Sequence record: AB897757.1
Length of the DNA: 64,000 bases
Direction: 5' to 3' (one strand)
From: Klebsiella phage K64-1
Below, piece after piece: positions 2,440 to 63,786 of the stretch. Made by a program: the position numbers and the translations under genes. The first letter of the stretch is position 1. The number at the start of each line of letters is the position of its first letter. The notes under the pieces are model-generated. The model was not told the DNA's origin, did not search any database, and worked only from the letters and a program-made list of their open reading frames with translations.

Positions 2440-2467
2440 TAAAAAGTTGAAATAGTACTTTACAATA

Positions 2468-2497
2468 AGGATACCATTTGGTATCCTTATTTTTATC
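2468..2497 (+). terminator. rho-independent terminator
   Basis: aaggatacc-attt-ggtatcctt stem-loop followed by atttttat. Confidence 0.6.
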
Positions 2498-2532
2498 AAG
2501 AGGAAAGTGTTTTAATATACAAAGGGGTAATT

Positions 2533-5761: not shown

Positions 5762-6691
5762 ATGAAACAACTATTAGACTTATATGATAAAATCTTGAAA
5801 GAAGGAGTGAAAAGTACAGACCGAACTGGGGTTGGTACTATTAAACTCGTAGGTCAACAAATGCGATTTGATCTAAATGAAGGCTTTCCAGCCGTAACAA
5901 CTAAACGTCTTGCGTGGAAGGCGATGTTATCAGAACTACTGTGGTTCATTGAAGGTTCCCATGATGAACGTCGTTTGTGTGAAATTCTTCATGGTACTCG
6001 TGACTGGAGTAAAAAAACAATCTGGACAGATAATTATCTCAAACAAGGTGTAGATCTTGGATATAGTGACGGTAATCTTGGTCCAGTATATGGTAAACAA
6101 TGGCGAGATTGGGTAGATTATAAATTTAGTTCTGATCCAAATGAAATTCAATTATTAAAAGATAAAGGTTATAAAGTATTAGATTATACCGGCTCGCATG
6201 GTGTTGTAATGCGTCGCAGTACTGATCAACTCATGAAAGTTATTGATGGTCTAAAAAATGATCCATATGGACGCCGACATATTCTAAGTGCATGGAATGT
6301 TGGTGAGCTTGATGATATGGCTCTTCAACCATGTCATAGTTTTGTTCAATGGGTAGTTAGTGATAATAAACTAAGTTGTATTCTGACCCAACGCTCAGCA
6401 GATACATTCTTGGGAGTTCCACTGAATATCACATCATATTCAGTACTCACCCATATGATAGCACAAATTACTGGATTAGAAGTTGGTGAATTTATCTGGA
6501 ACGGTGGAGATTGTCATATTTACTTGAATCATATCGAACAAGTAAAAGAACAATTATCACGAGATACAAAAGAATTACCAAAATTGTGGATAGACCCAAC
6601 AGTTACAGATATTACAAAATTTACAATGGATTCTGTTAAATTGATTGGATATGATCCACACCCGGTAATCAAAGCACCAATGGCAGTATAA
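5762..6691 (+). CDS. td: thymidylate synthase (ThyA/Td family), with a ~45-aa insertion
   Basis: Near-complete ThyA motif set: DRTGVGT, TTKR, LLWF, DLGPVYGKQWR, ILSAWNVGELD, catalytic ALQPCH, LSCILTQRSADTFLGVPLNITSY (Asn of the dUMP-specificity position retained), GYDPHP..IKAP at C-terminus. Confidence 0.9.
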   Translation: MKQLLDLYDKILKEGVKSTDRTGVGTIKLVGQQMRFDLNEGFPAVTTKRLAWKAMLSELLWFIEGSHDERRLCEILHGTRDWSKKTIWTDNYLKQGVDLGYSDGNLGPVYGKQWRDWVDYKFSSDPNEIQLLKDKGYKVLDYTGSHGVVMRRSTDQLMKVIDGLKNDPYGRRHILSAWNVGELDDMALQPCHSFVQWVVSDNKLSCILTQRSADTFLGVPLNITSYSVLTHMIAQITGLEVGEFIWNGGDCHIYLNHIEQVKEQLSRDTKELPKLWIDPTVTDITKFTMDSVKLIGYDPHPVIKAPMAV

Positions 6692-6696
6692 TATAA

Positions 6697-6727
6697 AAGG
6701 GAGACATTAAGTCTCCCTTTTTTTATA
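6697..6727. terminator. bidirectional rho-independent terminator between td (+) and the 510-aa gene (-)
   Basis: aagggagac-attaa-gtctccctt flanked by A-run and T-run. Confidence 0.7.
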
Positions 6728-8255
6728 CACCTACAACACAACGACCGAGGAATCTCATATCAGGTTCCATCGGAACTTGTAGTTTTACTTTATCCAGTTC
6801 AATTGACATATTCTCTACTGCAACATTTTCATAAAACCCATTTGACATAAGTTCTTGTACCTGTACTGACTTTGGTTCATCTACGGTAATGACCAATTCA
6901 TAGTTGATACCATCACTTGAAGGTACCCATGAAGACATATCAGAAATGTTTATTGTTTCGGAACCACTGATGCGTTTCCATTTACCACTGATTTTTTGAA
7001 TTAATGTATTAAAGCTAGGAGAAAAAGCTAACATACCATTTTCACCTAAAGTATTATTGGATGCATCAATAAATGGTGGTCTAAACCCGATCTCTGTTAA
7101 TTTAGTTTCCCCATTATAGCCATCAACCGTCGGATTTTGTGGGAAAAATAAAATTTCAGTATTTTTCCAACGCTGAACTTCTTTCGATGAGGCAGTTGCA
7201 GAAAACTCACCAGTTACCGAACCCCTGTGATATAAACCAGTACTACTATCAGACCATTTACTTGGGTCAATTCCGGGGTTTTCAGTTGGATCATAGGTCT
7301 TGTTGTTAAATGTAATCGCTGGTTTATCAACAGTACCATATGTTGCTGCAAAACGTCCCTCAGCTTCTGAAATACCATCATCATACATTGCATCACCGGT
7401 TCTACGTAAACCATCTAAACCATATAAATCAAGTACGGATTGTACATCGGAAACTGATGTTGGGAATTGTCGTCCATATGAATTTACTAGTTTATTATCA
7501 AATGTAACACTTGTGGCTGCAATACGGGTAGCATATTGACGAAGACTTTGCCATTTAGTACCAGTACTGATGATCCAGTCACTATCACGTAAGCCTGGGT
7601 CATAACTAGCATTACCAACCTCGAATTGTTCTGTTAGATCTGGGTCTGATGTTAATGATATAAGACCTTCATGACCAGTAGTTGGGATTTGATCTACATT
7701 AAATCTTGCATAAGCAGAGGTAACTGATTTAGAACCATTACCATCTGTGGTAAAATAATATTTAATTTCCAACCAGTCACCCTCACCTGATGGGTTGGTT
7801 GGTGTGAATATAACTGGTGATGTTGAAGGATTTGTAGTACTCATGTGAGTAGTAGCTAGATCAACAATACCACGAGTTACGTAATAATGACCTGAATTGG
7901 TTGAGTCCGTTGGTGGTAGATTATCGTAAACCGAAATTTCTGATGGTGGATCTACATCATCGGTATTTGGATTAAAAGTACCTTTATATGTCATACCATT
8001 CAATAATGTATCTGGTAAATTTGCAATTGAAATTTTACCATTAGCATCTAATTGAACAAAACGTCGATATTCTACTGTATCATCTAATAATTGTAATGTA
8101 CCTTCAAAAGCTTCCCATTCACTATTATAACGAATCATTCCCGGACGTTTAATGTCATTTGGTGGATTTTTCAATAGTGCTTTTGGTAATTCCAAGAAGC
8201 CATTAGTACTATCGATAATAACACCAGAATCACCACGTATTCTATATATACTCAT
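6723..8255 (-). CDS. putative tail fibre / receptor-binding protein
   Basis: 510-aa ORF, S/T/N/G-rich, clustered with the collagen-like fibre gene on the same strand; no specific family recognised. Confidence 0.35.
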   Translation of the reverse strand: MSIYRIRGDSGVIIDSTNGFLELPKALLKNPPNDIKRPGMIRYNSEWEAFEGTLQLLDDTVEYRRFVQLDANGKISIANLPDTLLNGMTYKGTFNPNTDDVDPPSEISVYDNLPPTDSTNSGHYYVTRGIVDLATTHMSTTNPSTSPVIFTPTNPSGEGDWLEIKYYFTTDGNGSKSVTSAYARFNVDQIPTTGHEGLISLTSDPDLTEQFEVGNASYDPGLRDSDWIISTGTKWQSLRQYATRIAATSVTFDNKLVNSYGRQFPTSVSDVQSVLDLYGLDGLRRTGDAMYDDGISEAEGRFAATYGTVDKPAITFNNKTYDPTENPGIDPSKWSDSSTGLYHRGSVTGEFSATASSKEVQRWKNTEILFFPQNPTVDGYNGETKLTEIGFRPPFIDASNNTLGENGMLAFSPSFNTLIQKISGKWKRISGSETINISDMSSWVPSSDGINYELVITVDEPKSVQVQELMSNGFYENVAVENMSIELDKVKLQVPMEPDMRFLGRCVVGV

Positions 8256-15697: not shown

Positions 15698-16195
15698 ATG
15701 AATCTACAAAAACTATTTAAAGTAAGCGATGATCTGGCAACTTCTCTTGGTCATACATATCTTACTATTGACCATATTAGTGCTACACTTCTTGAAGTTG
15801 ATAGTATTGTAGAACTATTCAATACCATGAATATTGATACAAATAAACTTCACAGTCGTGTGATGAATTTTCTGAAAAGTACTGAATATCCAAATCAACC
15901 GGCTAGTATGTCAGCTAATGGGACTAACAGTAGTTCTTTGTTGGTAAATCGCGTATTCAATGAACTGTCAAAAAAATCAGTTATTGAACAACTTAAACGT
16001 GATGATTTTACAATTGATTCATACTTTGTACTATTTGAATGCTTGTCTTTCCCAAATACAGCAAAGGCGTGTCTCGCACTGAAGCAGCACGTGCATTACA
16101 AAAACATGTGGCGAAAATCGATAGTTCCATCAATCTACAAAGTATTGCTGAAGATCCTAATTCATCAGATAAGAAAGCGACGGCGGGACAAATGA
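15698..16195 (+). CDS. ClpA-like N-terminal domain segment (frame A of a split ClpA-like gene)
   Basis: Residues resemble the Clp N-domain repeat; the frame ends at 16195; it overlaps the AAA+ body ORF, which is in the -1 frame. Confidence 0.5.
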   Translation: MNLQKLFKVSDDLATSLGHTYLTIDHISATLLEVDSIVELFNTMNIDTNKLHSRVMNFLKSTEYPNQPASMSANGTNSSSLLVNRVFNELSKKSVIEQLKRDDFTIDSYFVLFECLSFPNTAKACLALKQHVHYKNMWRKSIVPSIYKVLLKILIHQIRKRRRDK

Positions 16196-17985
16196 ATGCA
16201 ATTAAACAAAAAACTCTAGAAGATTTTACTGTAAACCTGACTAAACTTGCACAGGAAGGTAAACTTGACCCAATGATCGGTCGCCAAAAAGAACTTCAAT
16301 CACTAATTGAAGTAATGGCACGTAAAAACAAAAAGAATGCTATTCTTACTGGTGATGCAGGAGTCGGTAAAACTCAGATCGTCGATGGTTTTGCACAAGC
16401 CATTGCTGATGGTGACGTACCTGACTATCTGAAAGGTGTTGAGGTATTATCTCTTAACGTTTCTGCTGTAACTGCTGGTACAAAATACCGTGGTGAATTC
16501 GAAGAACGTATGGAAGGTATTATTAAAGAACTTAAAAAACGAGAAAATGTAATTTTGTTCATTGATGAAGTACATATTATGATGGGTGCTGGTGGTAGCA
16601 GCACTGGATCTATGGATATGAGCAATATCATGAAACCTGCACTTTCACGTGGTGATATTCGTGTTATCGGTGCAACAACTTATGAGGAATATCGCCAGAA
16701 CATTGAAAAAGATGCTGCATTTTCCCGCCGCTTCACTAAAATTGATGTAGTTGAACCTAGTATTAACGAAACACGTGAAATTATTAATGGTCTGAAAGGT
16801 ACTTATGAAAAATATCATAACGTAACATTCAGTACTGAAACAATTAACTCAATTATTAATCTGAGTTCTAAATTTTTACAAAATAAAAAGTTTCCAGATA
16901 AAGCAATTGATCTGATGGATAGTGCTGCTGCTAAAATTCGTTCAGAAAAACGTTCAGATCTAAAAGTGACGGTACGTGATATTGAAGAAGTTGTGTCCAG
17001 AATCACAAACCTTGATATTAGTGTTATTTCTTGTACTGAAAGTGAACGCATGAATAATCTACCAGATGTTCTACGTTCGCGTGTATTTGGTCAAGATGAA
17101 GCAATCGAAAAATTGGTCGATAACGTTATGGTTGCACGTGCTGGGCTACGTGATAAATCAAGTGTTCAGGGTGCTTTCATGTTTGTTGGACCATCTGGTA
17201 CTGGTAAAACTGAAATCACAAAAGCACTTGCTGAAGCAATGGGTTCTGAGCTAATTCGTTTTGATATGTCAGAGTTTTCGCAAGACCACACTGTATCTAA
17301 ACTTATTGGTTCACCTCCTGGATATGTAGGACATGAAACAGGAAATGGTCAGCTTCTTGATAAAGTTGAACAATTCCCTAATGCAGTACTTCTACTGGAT
17401 GAAATTGAAAAAGCACATCCAAAAGTACTGCTGACATTCCTACAAGTATTGGATGAAGGGCGTTTGACTGGTTCACAAGGAAAAACAGTTTACTTTAATA
17501 ATATTACTGTTATTATGACTACAAACCTTGGAGCAGCAGATTCCAATAAACGTAGTATCGGTGTAAGTACAGTGGATTCTGCACAAGAAAAAGCTATTAA
17601 AGCATTTTTACCACCAGAATTCATCAATCGCATTGATAGTATTGTTAAATTCAATGAACTATCATCAGAAGCAATTGATAGTGTAATTGACAAGTTTATG
17701 GGGGCATTGCGTGAACAAGTTAAAGAACGTGGAATTGAAGTGGTACTGACCAAACGTGCACGAGAATATCTTGCAGAGAATGGTGTTCAGAACGGCATGG
17801 GTGCTCGTCCAATGAAACGTTTGATTGAACAATGCATTCGTGTACCTTTGGCAAAAGAAATGCTTCTAGGCTCTCTGGTGAACGGTGGTAAGGTAACGTT
17901 TGATGTGATTGATGGTAAGATTGCAATTAAACAAAAAGTTAAAAAATCCACAAAGGAAATTGATTCAGCAGAATTAGAGGCGTAA
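16039..17985 (+). CDS. ClpA-like double AAA+ ATPase body (D1+D2), frame B
   Basis: Two Walker A motifs LTGDAGVGKT and FVGPSGTGKTE; no long ClpB-type middle domain; KRSIGVSTVDS...FLPPEFINRID aligns with the E. coli ClpA IGL ClpP-docking loop region. Confidence 0.75.
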   Translation: MLVFPKYSKGVSRTEAARALQKHVAKIDSSINLQSIAEDPNSSDKKATAGQMNAIKQKTLEDFTVNLTKLAQEGKLDPMIGRQKELQSLIEVMARKNKKNAILTGDAGVGKTQIVDGFAQAIADGDVPDYLKGVEVLSLNVSAVTAGTKYRGEFEERMEGIIKELKKRENVILFIDEVHIMMGAGGSSTGSMDMSNIMKPALSRGDIRVIGATTYEEYRQNIEKDAAFSRRFTKIDVVEPSINETREIINGLKGTYEKYHNVTFSTETINSIINLSSKFLQNKKFPDKAIDLMDSAAAKIRSEKRSDLKVTVRDIEEVVSRITNLDISVISCTESERMNNLPDVLRSRVFGQDEAIEKLVDNVMVARAGLRDKSSVQGAFMFVGPSGTGKTEITKALAEAMGSELIRFDMSEFSQDHTVSKLIGSPPGYVGHETGNGQLLDKVEQFPNAVLLLDEIEKAHPKVLLTFLQVLDEGRLTGSQGKTVYFNNITVIMTTNLGAADSNKRSIGVSTVDSAQEKAIKAFLPPEFINRIDSIVKFNELSSEAIDSVIDKFMGALREQVKERGIEVVLTKRAREYLAENGVQNGMGARPMKRLIEQCIRVPLAKEMLLGSLVNGGKVTFDVIDGKIAIKQKVKKSTKEIDSAELEA

Positions 17986-17990
17986 AAACA

Positions 17991-18023
17991 AAAGGAGAGC
18001 ATAAAAGCTCTCCTTTTTTTTAT
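17991..18023. terminator. bidirectional rho-independent terminator
   Basis: ggagagc-ataaaa-gctctcc followed by a T8 run; A-run on the other side. Confidence 0.7.
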
Positions 18024-21000
18024 TATATAACATTTAACAAGTTATTGAGTACCAAACCGTCAATTTTCAATGAATTAGCATACACACTTACATCAATTGG
18101 TTTGTAATAATTTTTATAAACACTAAAATTAAGTTCAACACCAAGATTGATACCAGTGAATGTATATGTTTCACCTTTAGCAAAATAGTGTTCAGCACTA
18201 TACATATCTGAACGAAGGATATTGTTATTATTTCGCACATGAACTTTTTCATATCCAAGTACGATAATATCATCATAACTAGTACTACCAGTAATGATAT
18301 TATCCTTAACACTATATGTACCAACTGAAACTGGCTCCACCACATAAGTGGTATTTTCATTCTCAACTTTAGTAACACTGGTTACTGTACAAGTTGTATC
18401 ACCGATATACACTTTATCTGTTAAATCATATGAGTAAGTCCATCTTACACCATCGAACACAGGTTTAATATCATCGACGTCATATTCATATACAGTAAAC
18501 TCTAAACTTTCTGGAGTTCCAATACGAACCAGTTCATCTAATGTACCAACACCGGTATTTGGCATGAAATATCCACTATCAACCACACCATCAGAAGTTT
18601 CAACTAACTCATTAGAGATTAGCCAAACATCCAAATCTAATGGATCTATTTCATCCGTGTAATCACCATTATTCAAAGAAATATCATAGAATACATCATA
18701 GTCCATAACATCAACTCTGTAATTTCTTATACTTTCATACAACAAATCACCATTGTTATTGAACTCATGGTCTGCAAAACTTCTAATACGAATAACATTT
18801 ATACTTGTTTTTGTATAAGGTTCACCAGTATTATTAGTGGTTAAATTATTAAACTCAAGTTTATTTCCATTTAAATCAACCAAAGAATAAACTCCGTTGT
18901 TAAGCTCAACTTCAAACATAATAGGTCGATCATTCTCTTTGATTTTATCAGTACTGAGAATAAGTTCATGAGTAAAGTTCTGGTATCTGTAATAATCATC
19001 ACCATCTGGGGTAAACACCATAACTTTATCACCACTATTGAGATTACTATTTTTCATCAAGAATTCAGTACTGCTTATAATACTATCAATAGTACTGATA
19101 TAATTATAAGAGTCTTTCTTAATTACTGTGCGGTTTACATAGTTTTGTACCAGACTATATGGAGGAATGCTCACAATAGCTTCTGTACGCTTGTATGGAT
19201 TGAGAACAACAAAACCCTCTATCTGGAATCGACTAAAGTCTTTAATCTGCTGTAGAGATGTAGAATCGTTACTATAACCATCTACTGTAAAACGCATTTG
19301 TGAAATAGCATTAGCACTTGGGTTCAACTCGGAAATATCAATGAAAACTGATTCAGTCAAATCACCTTCGTAGCTCAGTGCGACAGTTTTATATTGAGAT
19401 TCCAAACCTAAATTATCATAAGCATTCATATCATTATAATACTTCTGCCCCTTGATTCCCTCAAGTACAACCATGTAGTCACTGTACATTGGATTATTAT
19501 CATCCATTTCCAGATCATCCATATCAATCTCAACTGCTGTAACTACTGAACCATCAGTAATGAAAAGATCTTCCATATATTCATCAATGCTACGATCATC
19601 AGGAATACTAACATAACTACCGTTAATATTGAATCTAATATATTTTCTCGGGATCATTACAAATGCCTGAATATCCATTGATTTACGATTACTATTCAGA
19701 ATATCCTCTGCATATGCATAAGGATCATCACTGTCTTTATCAAACGTGTTACGAATAGCAGTTAGTACATGGATAGCATCTTTGTAATAACGACCCTGAG
19801 AATCAATATCATATTTGAAACAATAGATACCGTATTCAATTTCCATTACGCTTCTGATGGTTTCTTCATCAGCATCTGGTGTTTCTTCCAAAATAAGTTC
19901 TCTATAATGGGCGAATAAATCCTCACTAATTTCAAAATATCCCATGTTGAAGTCAGAACTTGAACTAAAACCAAAAGGTAATCTCGTATTCGGATTATCA
20001 TTGTAAATTTCACCACTCAGACCACAACCAATGGTATCATGGATTACATCTGAACTCATTGAACTATAAAGTTTTAATCTATTACTCAATGTATTATATT
20101 GTGAATACATTCTAACATCTTGTGTTAAGTTAGAAGTACTATACAATTCAGAAGTGATTCTGTCTAAATCAGAAGTGAAACTTTCAGTTCTTTCAGCATC
20201 ATCAACGTTCAATTTATACCATGCATTGATAGCATCAACTAAATCCAGACTTGTATCAAAATCAGAATATAGTTCAAACATATCAACAGAAATCTGAGTA
20301 TAAATTTCATCTACCTCAACAACTGGTAGTGTATACTTGAAACGCTGGATTTCATAGTACTGTACATTATCATCAGAATTACTTACATACTTAGCATTGT
20401 TCTCTTCCAGACTTGTAACATCATATAAATCACTATCAGGCTGGCATTGAACATTATCAAATTGCATTGAGATATCAATTTCCTGGAATTTTCTATCTGG
20501 GTAAACGAAGTCGTTTGGTATTGAACCAACTACCACCCATTGTCCAGTACTTTCATTATATTCAGCATATTCATGATCCCAAATATCAGATTGTGTTTTA
20601 ACCCAAATTGTACCGTTATATTCATAACCATTTGGATCTAAATCATTACAAACACCATAAACATAATCAGTGTCGGATGTTTTCTGTTCAATTTGAGAAC
20701 GAATTTTAGTCCTGTACGGTTTAACTTCATTGAAATATTCAATAATCTGATTAATCAATTCGTCATTAGTGTAATTTTGTTTAAGTGATTGTTCTAACCC
20801 AACAATATAAATGTATGAAGTTTTGAATACCCAATCAACCACACCCTGTTCAACGTGTACGTATTTAACCATGTCAAATACAATATTACTTTGAGCTAAA
20901 TCGAATGTATTTTTGATTAAATCTAATGCACTTCTTACATTAATTTCCTTGTTGCTTAAAGAACCATCACTGTTATAAACTTCATACCCATCATATAAAG

Positions 21001-23011
21001 ATGAATTAAGAGCGATTGTGCTGTTTTGACGCCCAATAGCATTCCAGAATACAGTATTACGTGATGATGTTTTCACATACATTGTCCATCCATCTGAATC
21101 AGTGATTCGAATAACATCACCAACTTGATAGTTTTTGGTATTAGCTATATCCAGGCTGGCTTCCTGAGTATAATCAGTATTTTCATCATACCCATCACTA
21201 TACCAGTCAGCATATTCCCAGTACTGGGTCATGTCAAGAGAAGTACCAAGTGATTCAACATAATCACTCTGTTTAATCATACTATGTTGTCCTTCACCTA
21301 GACCTTCCAGTGTGATTGTTGATGGATTAGCATCAATACTCTTTGTAGTCATGAATCTTATATAACCATTACTATCGTAGTGGACGAAATATACTGAAGT
21401 TGTATCTAGCGGGGATGGTAATACACCAGTACTACTCAAAATTACTGCATCGTTTTCATCGAATTTATCAAAATCAGTTGAGACAACAAATTCGTTATTG
21501 TATGCCAGAACCCTGAATGTAACTGAATTTTCATTCACCTCAGTAGTTTTAACATTGAAAACTTCACTCATTAATACCGTATCAGTTATGATATTTTGTG
21601 TTTTGTAATAATTATTTGCACTATCTACAAACGTTCTGCGAGCTTCAATCAAATCCATAAACCAGGTTTTAGATGAACCCAACCCTAATTCTACATCAGG
21701 ATAAACAATTTCATTTACTACACCACTCTTCGTGGTTTCGTGTCCTTTCAGAGAATTCCACAGAGAATTCCATATATCTGAATTGAAATTATAGCTATCT
21801 CCTTCTTTACATAGCTGATATTGTTCATGTTTAATAATATCAACACTATCTTCATGATAAGAAACTGTCAAAATGCTGGTATCATCAGTAATTTCATATT
21901 GCATATTACTAAGAATGAATGAATTCTCGTTAATTGGTGCAAACCAAGGAACGTCCAGTAAATGTGGATCTTTAATAATACGTGCAATATCAGTACATGA
22001 TTTACTTCTGGTGTTAATTGGTGGTACATAAATTGTATCTCTTACCCAGAAATAATAATACGTAACATATGAATCAGTTGTTTCATCATACTCAATGAAT
22101 GAAGTATAATTATCCATGATTGCAGTACCAGAAGGTATATACATAGTGTTATTTTTATTATTTTTAGTTTGTTCCTGACAGTATTTGTCCCAATTATATG
22201 GCTGTACTGGAGATTTAACCCACTCAAGAACATTAATATCACTATGTGGTAGCAATCTACCCCAGTTATAACGACGATATTCATTTGTAGCATCTTCATC
22301 AATGTCACCATTCTCATCCAGTACTGGGCGAGTGTAATCCAAATAAAATGCAGTACTGGTGTCCCACCATACTTGACCAACTTTCTCAGAACCCCATGCT
22401 TGAAGAGTTTCTCCATTGCTATTGTACTGAGCAGGGTCTACTGGAGAGATATAAGATACATCTTTCATTGCAGTCCCAGGTAAAACACCATTAATTGGGT
22501 CAAATATATTAAGATATAATTCAGTAATGTTTGTTTTTGAATTATAAGTAGATGGTCTATCAAATAAAGTACTATCTGGAACATCAAAACTGTATTTTTT
22601 ATCAATATATGCCTGACGTTCGGTTGTATCACTGAATCTGGATGTATATTTGTACAGTTTTGGTCTTGTATCTGGATCAGTGAAATTAATTGTGATACTT
22701 GTATCAAACGGAACAACAATTTTAGTTTTATCATCCCCTGCCGTGAAATATTGACTTTCTACTGTTAATGCATCTGGCATAAAATATGTATCATCAACAA
22801 AATAATAATAATCACCATCATCTAATGGAGCTTCGGCATCTAATTGAACAGTACAGTACTGTTCAGCATAAGTATCAGTATTTTCAATTGGAGTAATTGA
22901 TAACATAGATACACCAGTATCAACTAAATCAAAAATGTTCCATTCCTGATTCATATCAACGAACATCCACACTGAATCTGGATTTTCACCATTATTTTTA
23001 ATATAATTCAT
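18023..23011 (-). CDS. giant baseplate / tail-fibre structural protein (1662 aa; gp8-gp12-equivalent region by synteny)
   Basis: Lies on the late minus strand between the gp7-like giant and the terminator; open frame continues upstream to an in-frame TGA at 23108-23110. Confidence 0.45.
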   Translation of the reverse strand: MNYIKNNGENPDSVWMFVDMNQEWNIFDLVDTGVSMLSITPIENTDTYAEQYCTVQLDAEAPLDDGDYYYFVDDTYFMPDALTVESQYFTAGDDKTKIVVPFDTSITINFTDPDTRPKLYKYTSRFSDTTERQAYIDKKYSFDVPDSTLFDRPSTYNSKTNITELYLNIFDPINGVLPGTAMKDVSYISPVDPAQYNSNGETLQAWGSEKVGQVWWDTSTAFYLDYTRPVLDENGDIDEDATNEYRRYNWGRLLPHSDINVLEWVKSPVQPYNWDKYCQEQTKNNKNNTMYIPSGTAIMDNYTSFIEYDETTDSYVTYYYFWVRDTIYVPPINTRSKSCTDIARIIKDPHLLDVPWFAPINENSFILSNMQYEITDDTSILTVSYHEDSVDIIKHEQYQLCKEGDSYNFNSDIWNSLWNSLKGHETTKSGVVNEIVYPDVELGLGSSKTWFMDLIEARRTFVDSANNYYKTQNIITDTVLMSEVFNVKTTEVNENSVTFRVLAYNNEFVVSTDFDKFDENDAVILSSTGVLPSPLDTTSVYFVHYDSNGYIRFMTTKSIDANPSTITLEGLGEGQHSMIKQSDYVESLGTSLDMTQYWEYADWYSDGYDENTDYTQEASLDIANTKNYQVGDVIRITDSDGWTMYVKTSSRNTVFWNAIGRQNSTIALNSSLYDGYEVYNSDGSLSNKEINVRSALDLIKNTFDLAQSNIVFDMVKYVHVEQGVVDWVFKTSYIYIVGLEQSLKQNYTNDELINQIIEYFNEVKPYRTKIRSQIEQKTSDTDYVYGVCNDLDPNGYEYNGTIWVKTQSDIWDHEYAEYNESTGQWVVVGSIPNDFVYPDRKFQEIDISMQFDNVQCQPDSDLYDVTSLEENNAKYVSNSDDNVQYYEIQRFKYTLPVVEVDEIYTQISVDMFELYSDFDTSLDLVDAINAWYKLNVDDAERTESFTSDLDRITSELYSTSNLTQDVRMYSQYNTLSNRLKLYSSMSSDVIHDTIGCGLSGEIYNDNPNTRLPFGFSSSSDFNMGYFEISEDLFAHYRELILEETPDADEETIRSVMEIEYGIYCFKYDIDSQGRYYKDAIHVLTAIRNTFDKDSDDPYAYAEDILNSNRKSMDIQAFVMIPRKYIRFNINGSYVSIPDDRSIDEYMEDLFITDGSVVTAVEIDMDDLEMDDNNPMYSDYMVVLEGIKGQKYYNDMNAYDNLGLESQYKTVALSYEGDLTESVFIDISELNPSANAISQMRFTVDGYSNDSTSLQQIKDFSRFQIEGFVVLNPYKRTEAIVSIPPYSLVQNYVNRTVIKKDSYNYISTIDSIISSTEFLMKNSNLNSGDKVMVFTPDGDDYYRYQNFTHELILSTDKIKENDRPIMFEVELNNGVYSLVDLNGNKLEFNNLTTNNTGEPYTKTSINVIRIRSFADHEFNNNGDLLYESIRNYRVDVMDYDVFYDISLNNGDYTDEIDPLDLDVWLISNELVETSDGVVDSGYFMPNTGVGTLDELVRIGTPESLEFTVYEYDVDDIKPVFDGVRWTYSYDLTDKVYIGDTTCTVTSVTKVENENTTYVVEPVSVGTYSVKDNIITGSTSYDDIIVLGYEKVHVRNNNNILRSDMYSAEHYFAKGETYTFTGINLGVELNFSVYKNYYKPIDVSVYANSLKIDGLVLNNLLNVI

Positions 23012-23107
23012 GCGGTCTTCATATGAATCCTGATAAGTCCATGTAGTATAAGATACTTCATTTAAATTAACTGGGCCAATATCAGGTAAATGGATATTAT
23101 CACTCTT

Positions 23108-26100
23108 TCAGCGGAATTTACCTTTAGGACGAGTAATCCATCTGGAATCTTCACCTTGTGAACCATAATAAACTATTTCAGTACTACTTGTACTTGTATT
23201 AACATCTTTATTAAACGTAACCAGTTGTGGTTCTTGTTTAAAATCACTGTTAATTAATTGAAATTGTAAATTTTTCTTGGCATTAACGTTTCCATAAGTA
23301 CCAACTTTAAAAGCCCACTCTTGTAGTGCTTTATATTCATCAGTATTATATGATTTAGATACACGAAGAACGCGTTCCATTACCAAATTAGAGCCTTTAT
23401 CTCTAATAAAACCACGATAAAAATCAACACGGTTGGGATTATTAGTGATCATTTGCTGTAAGTAATCACGAGTTTGATATCCAATAACATGAGTACTTAG
23501 ATCATACAGTTGAACATCAGAAACAGGATCATTTGAATCATAATAATGTTGGAAATTAGTAACTAATGTTTCAAATGATGGTAATGTACCAGCTTCAAGA
23601 ATTATAAATCCGGGTGCTTGTAGGCGACCAACCCAGTTATCAGTGATATAACCGTACATTTTCACCAATTCCTGAATAGAACCGAATGTAGGTTGATAAA
23701 TGCTATCACCAAAAATAGTTTTATCATCAAATACCACTGCATGTTCCCATGAACATACACCTAAACGAACCAACGCCATGCGTTTATCGGCATCTTCATT
23801 AACTCTAACAGTGAAAACATTACCAATTCTTGATGTTTCAACTTCATATGGGTAGATACCACTGTTATCATCGTCCAACAGACTCCAGACACCACCATTT
23901 GTTTCACTAATACTTTGTACTGAGCCAAAATAAGTTCCGAATTTGGCATTTTTAGAGCTTGGTGTACATGAAATGTAATCACCAATGGTTAAATCTGTGG
24001 TACTCCATTGTAAAAAGTACTTAGCAATAGTAGACCAGTCCTGTTGTACCCCAGTGTCATCAACATCTTCAAAAATCCATCCATGTTCAACAAGATATTG
24101 ACCATATCCACACAGGAATGTATAAACATCCTGGAATGTGTTAAGAATAGATCCATATTCAAGCGTATCATCTTCTTTCCATTCCATATAATGAACAACA
24201 GTGCGATTTCCTTCAGTTACGGTTACTTTTTTACCATTTTTAACTGGTAATTTATAAGTAAACGTAGCATTAACCAAATCATAACCTTTAATAATATAAT
24301 TACTACCATTGAAAGTGATTTTAACTGCACTAAGAACTTCATTTTTGATATTATTAGAGCGTACCAGTCCGATTGTTTGGTTTTCTTGTGAAATTAAACC
24401 AAACGATTCAGATGTAAATGTTAATTCATTGCTCTTTGTAAATCCACCAAGCTTGTGTGCAATACTGATGTATGAAGTTCTAACTAAATCACCATATTTT
24501 GAAGTAATATTCTTACTTTGATAGGTTAAGTAGTTACTAACAGCCATTTGATAACCAAGAACACGAGTATTATTTTCACCATGAACCACCGTATCTGAAT
24601 TAAAATTCAGTCGAGTTCTGGTTTCTTTGTACTGCAATTGTAAACCACCATTTTTTACAGTTTTTAGTGTATCATTTAGTGTATCCCAGAAATAATTACA
24701 GAATTGTGCTGGTTTTGCACGATATATCTGCATCATTACATCATAACTAAACATTGCGTTATTCATATAGGTGAATTCGTTGTCACCCATATCACCATAA
24801 GACCATGGTGCACTGCGTTCTTTGATCGTACCTTTTACTAAACCAAGAACGTCAGGTTGAATATAATCAACGGTACAAATTTCTTTACCATTAGTTGAAT
24901 ATTCACCTGTTTTAGTAATTACAAATGGTTGAGTACCAAAACGCTTGTACTTATCATGCTGTCCCTTACGATCTCCATATAAAATGGTACCAGTACTGGC
25001 ATCACCTTTAACACCATTAACATCCCAAAGACCACTTGGTACTAATTCACCACTTTCATTAACAACCAATGCTTCATATACATATAAAATGTCATCTTCA
25101 TTTGTGCCTACCTGAACTTCAGTTGGTTCATATTCCTGATTCCACCAGGTTGGACGAACACCAAAGCCAAACATTTCCCATGGATGAGTTGCAGGGCGAT
25201 AAGTCCCGAACTGATCAGTATATATGGCACGCCAAGAACCACGTGCAGGAAAATCGGTAATTACACCATTAACTGTATAATAGGTACCACTATAATTCCA
25301 CGTCATCCAGTTTTGTTGGTCATAATTATGAGTAGTACTGTCAATTCCGTTGGTTGCAATGAAGTTAATATACCCACGTAGTAATAATTCATCACGTTCT
25401 TCTGCACTATACTCAGTATCCCTGTAATATGGTGTTGGAAACAGATCTGAACTATCAAGTTCAGGTTGATAATCTTCATCTTTGAAAGTATTATCAATAC
25501 TGTTATAAATTCTATTCTCAAGTTCATAGATAACATCATCCATTTTATCTACACCGTTAATAACACGATAAGATTTGGTAATTTCACCAGTATGACGAAT
25601 ATTATACGGTACTTGTTTGGATGCAGCAGTCAGGTATACAGTTTTTTCTGGCTTATGTACTTTAAGAACACCCATAAATTGTGGTGTAGGTGGAATAAAA
25701 GTACGAATTGTAGTTGTAGTACTCCCTACGCCATCGTAATAGAACGCAAAAGTAGAATCTTTACCAACATTAATGTTACTCAAAATAGTATCACAAATAT
25801 CACTACTTGAAGTGCTTAAAAATTTACTTGGGTCTTCTTTATACATATTAAGCATGTAGTTTTCAAATCTGTTATTAAAACGAAGATATTCACCTTGTAA
25901 AAACATTAATGCTTCAAAAAGATCAATATCACTATTAGCAGTATGTGCCATTAGTGGAAGTAGTGATCCTTCGTTTTGAATAATTTTAGTACCAACAGCA
26001 TTATCAACTAACCCTTGTTCAAGACGTTCTTCATAATCATTGATATTATCCACGGCACCAGATGTGATATTTTTTTGTACAATTTCCTGAAAATGTAAAG

Positions 26101-27988
26101 TATAATTACTTTGATCAATATAAGAAATATTATCACTATATGGGTTATTTTGTAAATTTACTGGAATTTCATAACTACCAAGATCGGTATCTGGTACTTC
26201 AGTACTACTATAAGTTCTGATTTGAATCACACTTTCAGAGTCCAAATCAACAGAGTCACCAATGGTGATGCTTTGTACTTTACCATTAGACACATTTCTT
26301 GTATAATCTTCAACTACAACACCATTGACCTGAATTTCAATGATATCTGAACTTCCATCAATGACTTTTTGTGCCAGTTCATAACTGCGGTTATACAATT
26401 CACTCTGAATACCTTCAGTGTTTACCATATGCCAGTCATAATAAGTTTCAGATTCTTCTTTGTAGTATTGATAGGTTGCATTGGTTTCAATAACATATGC
26501 ATACATACCATCAATGGCTTGACTGGAAAAGCTTTCCATTTCATATACAGTACTGAACACTCTGTACATATCAGTGCGTTCAACTTGAGGTGTTTGTTTT
26601 ACAAATTGTTTAGAAAATTCAGTACTACGAACCCAGTCAGTTTTTAATACACTATCTTCATCACCAATGATATTGTAATAATAAAATCCAGGGATTTCTT
26701 TAGTTTCACCAGAACTGATGTATTCATAACGAGTACTTTCAATAAAATTTTCGTATATATAATAATTATAATCACCCAATTCTACATTATATCCATAATA
26801 ACTATCAACTTTGTAGTTGTAGTTAATTTTTAGTCCAAACAGAGAAGAACCACTGAAGGTACTTGACGGATATACAGTACTATCTTGTAATTTTACACCA
26901 TTTCGATCATATAACTGGAAAAGAGGGAATGCATTTGTTCCATTCTTTTTCTGAGTTGCAATCCAGTTATGCCCATTCCAGTACATAGTGGTATTTCCAT
27001 AAACTTTACCACTTTTAATTAATACAACATCACCATCAAGTGGTTCACCACTTACACGTTCTGGTGTTTCTTCATCTGGGTCTAATGCTAAACCATAAAC
27101 GCGAGTACCATCCTGCATTTGGTTGATGTATACTTTATAAATTCTGTTATTTTCACCACTGTTACCAATGCTGGTAAAAAGAATACGCATTCCGTCTAAT
27201 GGGATTTGTCCATCAATACGAATACCCTGATTAATATCTTTTTGTACGATATCTTCTGGTTTTAATGAATCACTTAGTAGATCCACCACACCACGGAACT
27301 GTGTACCAAAATTGATTAGTTCGATATCTTTGTTATATTCAATAATTGGTACTTGTGCACGTACAAAACGATTATCATATGATAATTCATCATTCAGTAC
27401 TGAACCATCTGGTAAAGTATCACCAATGGTATACCAGAAGTTTTGTAATGACCATAAGTTTCCGTTTTTAGCATTACGTTGCATTACAACATAATCAGGA
27501 CTAGCGATACCATATTCATTTTCAGTATCCCAAAGATATGAACTAAAATTAATCATTTTATTTGGATTAATTGGTGGAGTCCATGAATAAATTCTTGAAT
27601 TAAACAGTCGGCTTTGATTATCAGTAATTGCACCATAATGATTCATATAAGAAACCAGATCATCATAGAATTCAATACTACGAATACTTTGATCTACATT
27701 ACGGGAGACATAAGCTGGAGATAACTGATATGCTTGGCGTGGTTGTGTTGATTCATTAACGAAAATCTTACCACTCGCTGCTGGAGAACCCATATCACCA
27801 AGATACCCATCAACGATTTTTTGTTCAGTGGGATTAAAGAATTGTTGAATAACATCATCACATACCTTTTGGATATCTTCCAAGCCTTGCATCCATTCTG
27901 GTAATCTCTTAATGAACAACTTTTGTTGTACTGCTTCAGCCGTTTTTGTTGGTTGAAACTTAAAATCATTAGCCATGTTTAGCTCCAT
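23108..27988 (-). CDS. giant baseplate wedge protein (1626 aa; gp7-like by position)
   Basis: Follows the gp6-like gene on the late strand; ends with TGA at 23108-23110; probable true start MANDFKF at 27976 (ggag RBS). Confidence 0.45.
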   Translation of the reverse strand: MELNMANDFKFQPTKTAEAVQQKLFIKRLPEWMQGLEDIQKVCDDVIQQFFNPTEQKIVDGYLGDMGSPAASGKIFVNESTQPRQAYQLSPAYVSRNVDQSIRSIEFYDDLVSYMNHYGAITDNQSRLFNSRIYSWTPPINPNKMINFSSYLWDTENEYGIASPDYVVMQRNAKNGNLWSLQNFWYTIGDTLPDGSVLNDELSYDNRFVRAQVPIIEYNKDIELINFGTQFRGVVDLLSDSLKPEDIVQKDINQGIRIDGQIPLDGMRILFTSIGNSGENNRIYKVYINQMQDGTRVYGLALDPDEETPERVSGEPLDGDVVLIKSGKVYGNTTMYWNGHNWIATQKKNGTNAFPLFQLYDRNGVKLQDSTVYPSSTFSGSSLFGLKINYNYKVDSYYGYNVELGDYNYYIYENFIESTRYEYISSGETKEIPGFYYYNIIGDEDSVLKTDWVRSTEFSKQFVKQTPQVERTDMYRVFSTVYEMESFSSQAIDGMYAYVIETNATYQYYKEESETYYDWHMVNTEGIQSELYNRSYELAQKVIDGSSDIIEIQVNGVVVEDYTRNVSNGKVQSITIGDSVDLDSESVIQIRTYSSTEVPDTDLGSYEIPVNLQNNPYSDNISYIDQSNYTLHFQEIVQKNITSGAVDNINDYEERLEQGLVDNAVGTKIIQNEGSLLPLMAHTANSDIDLFEALMFLQGEYLRFNNRFENYMLNMYKEDPSKFLSTSSSDICDTILSNINVGKDSTFAFYYDGVGSTTTTIRTFIPPTPQFMGVLKVHKPEKTVYLTAASKQVPYNIRHTGEITKSYRVINGVDKMDDVIYELENRIYNSIDNTFKDEDYQPELDSSDLFPTPYYRDTEYSAEERDELLLRGYINFIATNGIDSTTHNYDQQNWMTWNYSGTYYTVNGVITDFPARGSWRAIYTDQFGTYRPATHPWEMFGFGVRPTWWNQEYEPTEVQVGTNEDDILYVYEALVVNESGELVPSGLWDVNGVKGDASTGTILYGDRKGQHDKYKRFGTQPFVITKTGEYSTNGKEICTVDYIQPDVLGLVKGTIKERSAPWSYGDMGDNEFTYMNNAMFSYDVMMQIYRAKPAQFCNYFWDTLNDTLKTVKNGGLQLQYKETRTRLNFNSDTVVHGENNTRVLGYQMAVSNYLTYQSKNITSKYGDLVRTSYISIAHKLGGFTKSNELTFTSESFGLISQENQTIGLVRSNNIKNEVLSAVKITFNGSNYIIKGYDLVNATFTYKLPVKNGKKVTVTEGNRTVVHYMEWKEDDTLEYGSILNTFQDVYTFLCGYGQYLVEHGWIFEDVDDTGVQQDWSTIAKYFLQWSTTDLTIGDYISCTPSSKNAKFGTYFGSVQSISETNGGVWSLLDDDNSGIYPYEVETSRIGNVFTVRVNEDADKRMALVRLGVCSWEHAVVFDDKTIFGDSIYQPTFGSIQELVKMYGYITDNWVGRLQAPGFIILEAGTLPSFETLVTNFQHYYDSNDPVSDVQLYDLSTHVIGYQTRDYLQQMITNNPNRVDFYRGFIRDKGSNLVMERVLRVSKSYNTDEYKALQEWAFKVGTYGNVNAKKNLQFQLINSDFKQEPQLVTFNKDVNTSTSSTEIVYYGSQGEDSRWITRPKGKFR

Positions 27989-28055: not shown

Positions 28056-31000
28056 TTATGAACCAATATTGATATTAGTCTTAGCAAGGGATTTGACAAT
28101 TTGTACATTATCAACTGTTGCAGTACTAATAAAAATCTGATCACTTTGAGATGGTATTTCAAATAAAGAACCAAATTTAGAATCTGGATTTTGTGATACA
28201 ATAACGATTGTACTAATATACCTACCTAAATTACTTTGAATATAAGTACACAAATCAGTATAATAAAAACTTTCACCAAAGTCCCAGTTATCTATACTGA
28301 AGTATTCATTACAAAGAGAAATAACATTTTGTCTTATTTCATCATCACTCATAGTAGTATTTGGTAGTGGTACCACTTTGAAATCAGCCCTGTATGATTC
28401 ATCTGCACTATCACCAAATAAAGGAAGATATCTTGCACTGTGCCAAATTAAACTATCACTGATTACACTCCTTAACTCAACATCGCTAAATGTTTGTTTA
28501 AGTTCAACTGAAGTTGGTGGTTTAGGAATAGTACCACTTGCACCATTCTTAATCCACAATTGTACTTCATCATGATAAGATGTTGTTAATACATACATAT
28601 CAATTAGGTTAGTTTTACTTGGATCTATGCGATTATCATCTGGTGCATAATGTTTCCAGTGGAAATATACCCCGCTTCTTGCACCAACTTTAACATCGTA
28701 TTGAGTACTTACATCATCATATCCATAATAACTGAGTTTTTGGTTTTCATCAACATCGGATGAACCGTTATTCATAATAGCTCTATAAAACGCAGTTTCT
28801 GGTGTAATAGCCGAAGTATCATCAGATGAAGTCATATTTGTAATTAAATTATTAAGACGATCATTGTTATTTCCCACATTTTGTTCAATGAAGTAATAAT
28901 TATCATTGTACGCAAATCCAATAACAAAACCTGAACCTTTATTGAACAAATCACTCAATAAGGTACTTCTGATTTCCACGTTTCTGGTAAATTCTTTTCG
29001 TTTATATGCATTGGTTTCTGCTAATGCATCAGAATTAGTATATTTCCATGAAGAATCTAATAAAGTAAAATCATCATCTGGTAAATTTAATGCTTCTACC
29101 GTGAAATCTTCATTTTGCTGGAATATCAAAATTGCACCATATTTTTTGAGATCAGTTGATTCCCAGTCCGGTACTATATTACTGAATTGATTTGGCTCAA
29201 GTGGGATACCATTGGTATCTATTTTAGTACTACTGATAACTACACGAGAACCATCTATATAACCATTATCCTGTTCAATATTATCAATAATCTGGAACTG
29301 GATATCACTAGACAGACCCAAATTACTGGTATCAGTAGTATTTGAACTTAAAATTGTTATTTTATCGTTCTGTACTGTACCACTGTTGATATCATTAATT
29401 TTATTTGGGTTAACAAAATAAAAACGAACTTTAGAACCACCAACGAAGATATATTCAATACCATTTGATTCAAAACTCCATGATTCAGATGTGTACTTGA
29501 TATTAACCATTACTGGAACAGTAATACCCTGATATGAGATTTCTTCTTCATCAGTACTGATTTCAACTGGAACCCAGCGTGAAATAGATGTATCATAAAT
29601 GAGTACAAAATCCGTTTTTTTATCCAGTTCAGCGGAAATAGATTGAATTTCGACTGAATTGAAACTAATTCGGTAAGGTTTGATATATTCCTGAATATAC
29701 ATAGATGTAGGAACAGTAGTACTTAAAATATAATATCCATTCTCAAGGACATTAGTGATACTACTCCATATCGTCGTGTTTCCATCAGTGAATAAAATTA
29801 AAGTACCAACTTGGTAATCATACAAGGTCTTTCCTGTACTATCAAGTATTTTACCATATGTATTGTTTGTATAATTTGAATTATATTCAGGAGTCCAGAT
29901 ATTTCTCAATTCAAGTGTGACAGTATTACTTGGATATGATTGATATTTCTGTATAACTGCATTTTCACCAATTAATGGTTGGATACTATCAACTACTATA
30001 CTTGCATTTGGTTTAGATGTTGGCAATGATACTGTATTTTTATAAGTAACTTTATCTTTATACATACTACCATCATCACTGAATACATCAGTGTTTTGAT
30101 ATTTCCCGGTTGGGTCATTAATGTCAATGAATCGTGACTGACCACTATATATTCGGTTAATAGCTTTTGCTTTTTGAACCAAATTACCCTGACTTAATGG
30201 TGCAATATCATAATCCTCACCATTGACAAATCGGTTTTGGGTGTAATATAATTGTGGAGCACGAGCTTTAATCTGTTCCAGAGTTTCAGCACTTTGTGCA
30301 CGACTACTTTCGTACTGTAATGTAAATTTAACTTCAAGGATACTCTGTTCGTAGTTTGATTGTGCATTAGTTCTGTACTGATATTTTATACTTTTATTTT
30401 GGATATCAGTTGTTTTAATACTGTATGTCATCCCATTACTAACACGATACCACGTTCTGAATGTTCCACGTGGAACAACACCACTTCTTGAATCAGGAAA
30501 CTTAATACTAATTTGATCATTATCACGCGTGGTTACAGCGAAAATAGTTTGTTTTTTTCTGTCTACACTGTTATAAGCAACACTTTCCATTGCAGGAACT
30601 TTAGTCCATTTGGTTCTTACTAAACCGTCCTGATTAATTTCTTGTACCCAAACATCTGTTTCATTAATATTATTAACATTAATATCCTGTAAACGATTTT
30701 CAATACTCACACTATAATCGAAGTCTTGTTTAGAAAGTGTGCCTTGTTTGAAATAAACGAAAAATCCAGTATTGATTGAATTAAAACCATTACCATCATT
30801 CTGATAAATGATATATTTTTGTTCTTGTGGTTCAGGATGGCGTTCATCGACACCAGAAGAGCTAATATCAGGGTTTACTACTTCAAATTTCATACTTTCA
30901 CCATTTACGTTTGCACTAAATGGGATAGCTGGTGATTGCATTTGATTAGTATTCATTTTATACAAATGAGTACTCAACCCATTCACATTAGTTTTCTTAA

Positions 31001-31520
31001 CTGGATTGCCAAACTGGTTGGTACTCACAAAAACATTGTTCATAACCAGAATAAAGTTCTCGTACCAGTTAGGATCAGTAGGGTCATTCCATCTAATCGT
31101 TTTATCTTTAAGTGATTTATTAAAACTATTTCGTACATCCTGGTTTGTTTTTATTTCAGTGACTTTAGCTAATGCACGACCTGGATATGAACGCCTTGGA
31201 GCATAAGAGATCATTTTAGCAAGTTTAAGTACCGAAGCCCTGCGGGTTGCAGTATCCATAAAGTTTTCACGAGTGTTCATGTCCATACGAAATGCAAGGT
31301 TTTGACCAAGCATGGCAATCGTGTCCAGAATGAATAAAAATTCATCATTTGCAATCCAGTCATTGAATGTATCAGGATAGTTAGTACTAAGATAGTCAAC
31401 CATACTTTGACGTATACTATCGAAATCATATGAATTCAATGAAATTTGATAAAAACTTTCATATATTTGCGACCAGTCTTCACCAGCGTATAAATTAGAT
31501 TGTCTTCTTTGCTGAGACAT
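28056..31520 (-). CDS. baseplate wedge protein, gp6-like by synteny (1154 aa)
   Basis: Second gene after gp25 on the late strand, as in gp25-gp6-gp7 clusters; size only, no sequence-level recognition. Confidence 0.4.
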   Translation of the reverse strand: MSQQRRQSNLYAGEDWSQIYESFYQISLNSYDFDSIRQSMVDYLSTNYPDTFNDWIANDEFLFILDTIAMLGQNLAFRMDMNTRENFMDTATRRASVLKLAKMISYAPRRSYPGRALAKVTEIKTNQDVRNSFNKSLKDKTIRWNDPTDPNWYENFILVMNNVFVSTNQFGNPVKKTNVNGLSTHLYKMNTNQMQSPAIPFSANVNGESMKFEVVNPDISSSGVDERHPEPQEQKYIIYQNDGNGFNSINTGFFVYFKQGTLSKQDFDYSVSIENRLQDINVNNINETDVWVQEINQDGLVRTKWTKVPAMESVAYNSVDRKKQTIFAVTTRDNDQISIKFPDSRSGVVPRGTFRTWYRVSNGMTYSIKTTDIQNKSIKYQYRTNAQSNYEQSILEVKFTLQYESSRAQSAETLEQIKARAPQLYYTQNRFVNGEDYDIAPLSQGNLVQKAKAINRIYSGQSRFIDINDPTGKYQNTDVFSDDGSMYKDKVTYKNTVSLPTSKPNASIVVDSIQPLIGENAVIQKYQSYPSNTVTLELRNIWTPEYNSNYTNNTYGKILDSTGKTLYDYQVGTLILFTDGNTTIWSSITNVLENGYYILSTTVPTSMYIQEYIKPYRISFNSVEIQSISAELDKKTDFVLIYDTSISRWVPVEISTDEEEISYQGITVPVMVNIKYTSESWSFESNGIEYIFVGGSKVRFYFVNPNKINDINSGTVQNDKITILSSNTTDTSNLGLSSDIQFQIIDNIEQDNGYIDGSRVVISSTKIDTNGIPLEPNQFSNIVPDWESTDLKKYGAILIFQQNEDFTVEALNLPDDDFTLLDSSWKYTNSDALAETNAYKRKEFTRNVEIRSTLLSDLFNKGSGFVIGFAYNDNYYFIEQNVGNNNDRLNNLITNMTSSDDTSAITPETAFYRAIMNNGSSDVDENQKLSYYGYDDVSTQYDVKVGARSGVYFHWKHYAPDDNRIDPSKTNLIDMYVLTTSYHDEVQLWIKNGASGTIPKPPTSVELKQTFSDVELRSVISDSLIWHSARYLPLFGDSADESYRADFKVVPLPNTTMSDDEIRQNVISLCNEYFSIDNWDFGESFYYTDLCTYIQSNLGRYISTIVIVSQNPDSKFGSLFEIPSQSDQIFISTATVDNVQIVKSLAKTNINIGS

Positions 31521-40635: not shown

Positions 40636-41514
40636 ATGACACGCCCACGCAGAAAAAAATATCTCAATAATGCAGATCTATTGAGAGAAATTCAAAAAAG
40701 CAAAATGACATATTGTTCTGTAATAGATCCTATATACAATATGTATGATTTCATTGTTTTTGATGAATCAGAAATCGATGAAGAGATTCTACAAAAAGCA
40801 AAAACTGCAAGAATCAAACGTCTAAATAATGAAATCCTCGAAAATACAAGGAATGTTCTGAATTGTGGAACTAAAAAGGCTCGTGAACATTGCATTGAAC
40901 AGGATTTATTCTTAAAAGATGTACCAGATGATGAAGTTGTTATTAGAGTAATCACAAATGAACACATTCCAGAAGGAACACGTACAAATTTCGAAGCATT
41001 TAAGCAATATATTATCAGTACTGATGGTGAATTGATTGAAGTTGCTAGAAGTCACTGGAAAGGTGATTTTGAAACCGGAGAATTCACTGTTAATGGTGGT
41101 AAGTTAACTAATGAGCTTGGTAAAATGTTCATTAAGCTGGTTGAAGAGATTTCACATAAAGCTAATTTTAGAAATTATACATACTTAGATGAAATGCAAG
41201 GTGAAGCACGAATTCAGTTGGTAAAAAATGCTCTACTTTTCAAAGAAAGTATGTTGTACAAAAAAGATAAACCTACTAATCAACTAAATCCATTTTCTTA
41301 TTATACAAGTTTCGTAACTAATTCGTTTCGTTCTGTTCTTAATAGTGAAAAAACTGTTCGTAATATCCGAGATGATTTATTGGAAATCAACGGTTTCACT
41401 CCATCACATACACGTCAATTGGAAATTGAAGTACAAATGATTGAACGAAAGAAAGAAGAAGAACAGGAACAAGAAGAAGAGAAAAATATCGATGAAAACC
41501 GACATTTTATTTGA
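40636..41514 (+). CDS. gp55: late-transcription sigma factor gp55 homologue with a ~100-aa internal insertion and an acidic C-terminal tail
   Basis: [11 protein letters not shown] ~ T4 [57 protein letters not shown] ~ T4 [64 protein letters not shown] ~ T4 NPHAYITQACFNAFVQR (all from memory). Confidence 0.7.
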   Translation: [292 protein letters not shown]

Positions 41515-54459: not shown

Positions 54460-54765
54460 ATGTCTAATAAACTACTAACTGAATCTCAATGGGCCGCGAC
54501 CAAAGAACGTATTACCGAAGGTCTAAAAGGCAGTCGTAAACGTGTGATGGATATTACTATGGATAACTATCGTCGTGAGCGTGCATTATTTGAATCTGCT
54601 ACTGCTGGTGCTACCACTGCTGGTAACATTGCTTCTGTTAACAAAGTAATTCTACCAATCATGCGTCGTGTATATTGGTGTACAACCAATGACTGGTCCA
54701 TACTGCCAGATTCATACTCTACGTGTTCAATATGCAACCAATGCTCCAGGTGTTGCTGCTGGTGA
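54460..54765 (+). pseudogene. gp23: major capsid protein gp23, N-terminal segment (frame A); the frame is lost after IMRRVY
   Basis: TTAGNIASVNKVILPIMRRVY parallels T4 gp23 AAGQTSGAVTQIGPAVMGMVRRAIP; the remaining residues of this ORF are nonsense (Cys/Trp-rich) before a TGA. Confidence 0.6.
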
Positions 54766-63423: not shown

Positions 63424-63786
63424 ATGTTTGAAGATGAAATTCAAAGGAATAATGAATTGTATGAAGAGTATAAAAAAATGAAATCTGAAACAAAACAAAA
63501 GAACATTAACATAAGAATTACAGAATGTCTAATGAGTAATACTATCGATTCAGTACTGGCATATGATGCAATAGATGAGGACATTCTAACCAAGAATGGT
63601 TTCGTTAGAACAGGAACTATTTCTTTGTGTAATGAGATTGTTGGTGTTTATAGAAACCCAGTAAATAAAAAAACTTTTACTATAGAAATTGGTGATGATG
63701 TAGAACATCCATCAAATTTCATTGAAAAGGTTAACAATGAAATAATTAAAAAATCAGATAAACACTATCTGTACAACTGGAAATAA
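63424..63786 (+). CDS. hypothetical protein (RegA-sized; candidate only by size and position after gene 43)
   Basis: 120-aa ORF directly after the polymerase; no convincing motif match. Confidence 0.3.
   Translation: MFEDEIQRNNELYEEYKKMKSETKQKNINIRITECLMSNTIDSVLAYDAIDEDILTKNGFVRTGTISLCNEIVGVYRNPVNKKTFTIEIGDDVEHPSNFIEKVNNEIIKKSDKHYLYNWK

Follow-up and report, generated by a model that had tools for sequence, protein, structure and literature searches.

The 64,000 nucleotides (nt) of Klebsiella phage K64-1 analysed here (sequence record AB897757.1; this whole stretch is called the window below) include two giant open reading frames (ORFs) of 1626 and 1662 amino acids (aa), which lie one behind the other and are parted by a single TGA codon. 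Does this TGA end one of two genes, is it read through by the ribosome, or is it a lesion in one gene? An earlier note on this DNA, made from its letters, took the locus for a single protein of ~3320 aa interrupted by an opal codon, and offered programmed read-through, a nonsense mutation suppressed in the host, a sequencing error, or two separate genes as explanations. Comparison with related phages showed that the ancestral state is a single gene, and that the TGA is the junction of a 15-nt deletion private to this sequence. The two-ORF arrangement is not a biological feature as proposed; it is a disrupted copy of a giant virion gene that has already been catalogued. It is probable that the deletion was introduced at the level of the sequence record, and that the real phage encodes one ordinary protein of ~3,326 aa.

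The giant gene and its 15-nt deletion

According to the ORF list of the window, both giant ORFs are carried by the minus strand in a shared frame, the upstream one at 23108..27988 (1626 aa) and the downstream one at 18023..23011 (1662 aa). The sequence between them is ...GGT AAA TTC CGC TGA AAG AGT GAT..., with the TGA at 23110-23108. The next 96 nt (23107-23012) are free of stops in the same frame and lead to the ATG at 23011-23009. The 32 codons between the TGA and the ATG encode KSDNIHLPDIGPVNLNEVSYTTWTYQDSYEDR. The description in the earlier note of one frame, a single TGA and 32 open codons leading to the ATG is therefore borne out by the sequence, and its coordinates are exact.

The window is 99.3-99.5% identical to the Klebsiella jumbo phage vB_KleM_RaK2 and the Alcyoneusvirus relatives Muenster, RCIP0023, KP13-7, OU509535, W12-3, and phiKp_21, and is identical to none of them. 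Its gp098 homologue is identical to RaK2 gp098 at 595 of 595 positions; in the literature, S2-8 of phiK64-1 is likewise identical to RaK2 gp098. In RaK2, the region of the two giant ORFs is a single coding sequence (CDS) of 9981 nt, gp465/ORF070w (YP_007007225.1), which encodes 3326 aa and is annotated as "virion structural protein". The window ORFs are collinear with it at 99.5% nucleotide identity. The upstream ORF corresponds to RaK2 residues 1-1626, based on the ORF list, the family profile phrog_10938, and nucleotide identity. The 32 codons (KSDN...YEDR; 23012..23107, minus strand) correspond to residues 1633-1664, and are internal coding sequence, not a spacer. The downstream ORF corresponds to residues 1665-3326, and its apparent start codon is the internal Met1665. 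On the PHROG profile phrog_10938, which has 3324 positions, the upstream ORF covers positions 1-1624 (3015 bits) and the downstream ORF positions 1663-3324 (2628 bits). Since both ORFs match one profile, their shared frame is not a matter of chance.

The gene is also a single CDS in 121Q (gp582, 3323 aa), RCIP0023, KP13-7, and Muenster. Ten independent metagenome or SRA assemblies encode an identical wedge protein; gene calling gave a single giant product of 3322 aa in eight of them, and in the other two the gene is broken by a scaffold gap of Ns or by the end of the contig. In a tblastn search, a 401-aa segment with the break at its centre matched 71 phage records without interruption, each time within one annotated gene. 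These records include Asteriusvirus, Mimasvirus (GAP32 and CBB), phages of Yersinia, Erwinia, and Serratia, and Xanthomonas phage XaC1, with gene sizes of 3332-3771 aa. The most distant homologues, PA5oct gp355 (3857 aa) and Atu_ph07 gp180 (4449 aa), are single genes directly after the wedge gene as well; their match to the query fades near the break, but the gene is nonetheless single. In RaK2 and all relatives examined, the gene product ranges from 3,322 to 4,449 aa, and the gene always follows a gp6-like wedge gene. The comparison of homologous giant proteins that the earlier note called for thus gives one ORF in all relatives, with no unrelated stop-containing spacer. No stop is present at the TGA site in any of the 18 close relatives or the 71 wider phage records, all of which encode FPMRSG or a near variant there.

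The alignment with RaK2 and 121Q revealed that the window is without 15 nt, TCCCGATGCGTTCAG. RaK2 reads AAA TTC CGC TTC CCG ATG CGT TCA GGA AAG (K F R F P M R S G K), where the window reads AAA TTC CGC T|GA AAG. The TGA (23108..23110, minus strand) is composed of the T at 23110 from the ancestral TTC (Phe1627) and the GA at 23109-23108 from the ancestral GGA (Gly1632), with the junction between 23110 and 23109. The residues lost through the deletion are F-P-M-R-S-G. Because 15 is a multiple of three, the two halves stay in the ancestral frame, and the gap between them remains free of stops in that frame. The window copy thus differs from RaK2 gp465 and its orthologues in having no 15 nt for FPMRSG, and in being 1626 + 1662 aa long instead of 3326 aa. 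The single protein assumed in the earlier note holds true, as one gene of 3326 aa in RaK2 and 3323 aa in 121Q under one PHROG profile, but the cause of the interruption is a 15-nt deletion and not a point event.

The deleted hexapeptide FPMRSG falls within the most conserved stretch of the region. It is invariant in RaK2, 121Q, GAP32, CBB, and XaC1, the last of which shows ~50% overall identity, and a Vibrio phage with ~38% identity has FPMVS at this site. Within the 15 nt, close relatives vary synonymously (TCCCG/TTCCG and GGA/GGG). Such variation marks purifying selection on the peptide. The 32 codons downstream of the TGA are identical to those of RaK2 and conserved in 121Q, GAP32, CBB, and XaC1.

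In pairwise BLAST comparisons with close relatives, the 15 nt were kept in 18 of 18 near-identical sequences, and their loss was the sole insertion or deletion (indel) of the ~10-kb gene in each comparison. The giant gene of the window has only six private substitutions in 9.9 kb. The 15-nt junction sequence was absent from viral, genome, and metagenome collections, where the sole metagenome match was the intact form. Exact-protein look-ups found neither half-protein, including two alternative starts, in a collection of 15 billion proteins or a gene-position index. Only 2.6% of the possible 15-nt deletions in the giant gene would give rise to a stop at the junction, and the TGA is therefore considered an accidental by-product of the deletion.

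Origin of the deletion and two further lesions in the window

Comparison of the whole window with RaK2 uncovered two further private deletions, both in genes on the plus strand. A 22-nt deletion, CTAGAAGCTGCGTTAAAAGAAG, with its junction at 16063..16064, frameshifts the gene for a ClpA-like ATP-dependent protease and leaves the ORFs 15698-16195 and 16039-17985. A 26-nt deletion, ATGCCAACCGTTATCGCTAACGAAAT, with its junction at 54672..54673, frameshifts the gene for the major capsid protein (gp23) and leaves the ORFs 54460-54765 and 54668-55615. The capsid gene is left as out-of-frame pieces of 101 and 315 aa; it is intact, at 393 aa, in eight close relatives and three further assemblies. The ClpA-like gene is left as pieces of 165 and 648 aa, and its product in RaK2 is 769 aa. 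The missing bases are kept in eight of eight close relatives, where 801-nt queries span 827 nt for the capsid gene and 823-824 nt for the ClpA-like gene. The fragments created by these two deletions are on record nowhere in the collections searched.

The 15-nt deletion is the same in character as the lesions in the capsid and ClpA-like genes. Microhomology is 0 nt at all three junctions, and no significant hairpin is present there, unlike slippage-type natural deletions. No mismatch clusters were found beside the deletions. Every other indel of the window is 1-3 nt long and intergenic. The one natural coding indel of this clade, 9 nt in ORF091, keeps the reading frame and occurs in more than one isolate.

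With only one major capsid gene present, its frameshift should be lethal. No plaque-forming phage can have its single-copy capsid gene out of frame, and therefore at least the capsid lesion must have arisen during the production of the sequence. Because the same window holds these two similar private deletions, the 15-nt deletion is probably not that of a viable phage either. It is private to one record while near-identical genomes are intact, and it co-occurs with lesions incompatible with viability, the 26-nt one in the capsid gene and the 22-nt one in the ClpA-like gene. The 15 nt would have been lost between DNA and text, in assembly, consensus calling, contig joining, or later editing. 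The deletion brings the first base of TTC next to the last two of GGA, and creates an opal codon by chance while keeping the downstream frame. In the real phage, the giant gene would be one uninterrupted ORF, translated conventionally and with no recoding mechanism. The sequencing error listed in the earlier note is thus the best supported of its explanations, given the capsid and ClpA-like lesions, once it is broadened to a deletion at the assembly, consensus, or record level; a base substitution it is not.

Several points weigh against such an origin. The window genes contain no homopolymer frameshifts, which does not fit a generally error-prone assembly. Clean deletions of 15-26 nt are not known as the most frequent error on any major sequencing platform. 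Unlike the other two, the 15-nt deletion has a length divisible by three, and by itself it could be a tolerated or leaky allele. The artefactual origin of the 15-nt deletion is inferred from the sequences, not demonstrated.

The alternative that survives best is that the 15-nt deletion is real in the phage stock. The protein would then be made as two fragments, with the C-terminal 1662 aa produced by ribosomes that terminate and re-initiate 96 nt downstream at the ATG 23011, or through low-level read-through of UGA-A by near-cognate tRNA-Trp. UGA is the leakiest stop codon in enterobacteria, and since the length of the deletion is divisible by three, the read-through product would be of full length except for FPMRSG. 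The homologous protein occurs at low abundance in virions, and should it belong to the baseplate, a few copies per virion would suffice. In other respects the assembly of the window is clean. On the other side, the lost hexapeptide is invariant across genera. The Met at the ATG 23011 is not conserved, being Ile, Leu, Leu, Thr, and Lys in other genera. No Shine-Dalgarno sequence is present at the functional spacing of 5-10 nt from this ATG. As the earlier note had seen, only a weak GAAG is close, and an AGGA is too distant at 16 nt upstream. Real genes in the window have AGGA, GGAG, or GAGGT located 5-10 nt upstream of their start. No suppressor tRNA is present in the window or among the published tRNAs of RaK2, and the allele was found in none of the 18 close relatives and in no public collection searched. 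Moreover, the two private deletions of the same style, one of which breaks the capsid gene, demand a technical process anyway. We consider a real deletion in the stock unlikely. Still more doubtful is its strongest form, a viable phage with a genuine 15-nt allele that makes an essential 382-kDa baseplate-associated protein by UGA read-through or as two non-covalently assembling fragments of ~185 kDa. If the allele were genuine, the largest protein of the Rak2-like jumbo phages would be modular or dispensable to an unexpected degree. The break would also offer a naturally occurring split from which to study how the domains are organised in this uncharacterised virion protein of ~3,300 residues, which is conserved across jumbo myoviruses.

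Another alternative takes all three deletions as real, in a defective and non-propagating genome population, such as defective particles or a degraded or mixed sample. It would account for three private lesions in important genes. It is, however, highly improbable: a broken single-copy capsid gene cannot be the majority consensus of a plaque-forming stock, and the window shows no other decay, with the few private substitutions given above for the giant gene and every other gene intact.

With a lesion of the record as the preferred reading, the annotation should merge the two giant ORFs into one gene or flag the gene as disrupted, and the same applies to the capsid and ClpA-like genes. There are no grounds to report recoding or new gene boundaries. 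A stop codon followed by an open in-frame continuation mimics read-through, and near-identical genomes can expose such a junction as an accidental deletion.

Recoding, suppression, and gene fission

Programmed read-through, in which an evolved UGA gives a short and an extended product, is known from phages; the coat protein and A1 protein of Q-beta are an example. The window resembles that system superficially, in the open in-frame continuation after the UGA, which is the only point in favour of this explanation. A read-through signal should be conserved, but no relative at any distance has a stop at the site, where FPMRSG is encoded instead. The stop of the window is a deletion junction and not an evolved codon, and the ancestral state is plain sense. 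The probability left to programmed read-through is negligible.

Gene fission, the formation of two genuinely separate genes with a short spacer, is equally hard to credit. In its favour are two long ORFs, each exceeding 1600 aa. The supposed spacer, however, is conserved coding sequence (RaK2 residues 1633-1664), the two halves match a single family profile, no gene boundary is seen at the site in any lineage, and the downstream ORF has no ribosome-binding site. Read-through and two genes, both listed in the earlier note, are thus contradicted by relatives that have neither a stop nor a gene boundary there. The only fragmented records, those of the Salmonella phages SD-1_S14 and SD-6_S16, are split elsewhere and out of frame, as is typical of assembly errors.

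In SD-1_S14 and SD-6_S16, the giant gene is broken up into 3-4 out-of-frame CDSs that overlap, and the breaks are not in the same places in the two records, which indicates error-prone assemblies. As in the window, the same giant gene is broken in single records and intact in close relatives. Unlike the frameshift-type noise in those records, the window shows three clean deletions of 15-26 nt in an otherwise accurate sequence.

A suppressor-dependent nonsense mutant, also suggested in the earlier note, does not fit, as the lesion is a 15-nt deletion instead of a single-base substitution. No tRNA gene was found in the 64-kb window with ARAGORN. The published tRNA set of RaK2 consists of Asn, Arg, Thr, two Ser, and two pseudo-tRNAs, with no suppressor.

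Global reassignment of TGA, which the earlier note rightly held to be unlikely, is excluded. Three other long ORFs of the window (55731-56957, 40636-41514, and 45730-46224) end at genuine TGA stops. Stop usage in the window is 30 TAA, 4 TAG, and 5 TGA, and two of the five TGAs were made by deletions.

The giant virion protein and other variation in the window

The protein of the RaK2 gp465 type is already catalogued as the "largest gene" of Rak2-like jumbo phages, in the family phrog_10938. Its orthologues are 121Q gp582, phAPEC6 gp245, GAP32_230, CBB_236, XaC1_312, PA5oct gp355, and Atu_ph07 gp180. By mass spectrometry, it has been reported as a virion protein of low abundance in RaK2 (gp070w, 382 kDa; 7 peptides with 2.2% coverage), phAPEC6 (gp245, 381.9 kDa; 17 peptides), and CBB (CBB_236; 21 peptides). 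In all three, the protein was reported at its full predicted size of ~382 kDa. The PA5oct orthologue is also among the virion proteins verified by mass spectrometry.

In RaK2, gp465 is flanked by a gp6-like baseplate wedge gene upstream and a ClpA-like protease gene downstream, and the neighbours are the same in the window. The wedge gene of the window, located at 28056..31520 (minus strand) directly upstream of the giant gene, is annotated in RaK2, 121Q, and Muenster. The family is characterized by a single ORF directly after this wedge gene; in the window the synteny is kept and the single ORF is interrupted by the TGA. No Pfam domain was found in the giant protein. At E<=1, no PDB entry matched either half by sequence, nor did any match an N-terminal profile of four sequences. 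The assignment to the baseplate is based on synteny, which is conserved, and on proteomics of virions, and not on homology. Like T4 gp7, the giant gene comes directly after a gp6-like gene within a baseplate module of gp5, gp25, and gp6, and encodes a virion component. Unlike T4 gp7, the giant protein is three to four times larger, and has no detectable sequence or profile similarity to gp7.

A word-indexed protein search with the 401-aa segment of RaK2 gp465 returned no match, whereas 89 phage records were found with tblastn. An index of this kind may not reach the giant proteins of the family.

The 9-nt indel of the clade was observed at window position 51926, in the ORF091 homologue, which encodes a virion structural protein. 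RCIP0023 and an SRA assembly carry the 9 nt, GACGAAACT, and have a product of 260 aa; the window and RaK2 are without them, with a product of 257 aa.

The densest divergence from RaK2 was seen at ~6000-8000 of the window, in the homologue of RaK2 ORF060w (ORF 6723-8255, minus strand). This region has 85 mismatches in 2 kb, several of them in tight clusters, against a background of ~5-10 per 2 kb. The ORF060w homologue looks hypervariable or recombinationally mosaic.

The DNA polymerase is one 1000-aa gene in the window (60409-63411) and in RaK2. In the contig of a relative (Logan SRR21837329, 12256-17019), the predicted polymerase gene has 842 aa, and two additional ORFs, of 325 and 404 aa, come after it. 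These additional ORFs suggest an inserted mobile element, an intron or a homing endonuclease.

At window position 63666, in the homologue of RaK2 ORF101, a 1-nt length difference from RaK2 was observed near the 3' end of this small hypothetical gene. RCIP0023 (120-aa product) has the same length here as the window, and RaK2 is the outlier.

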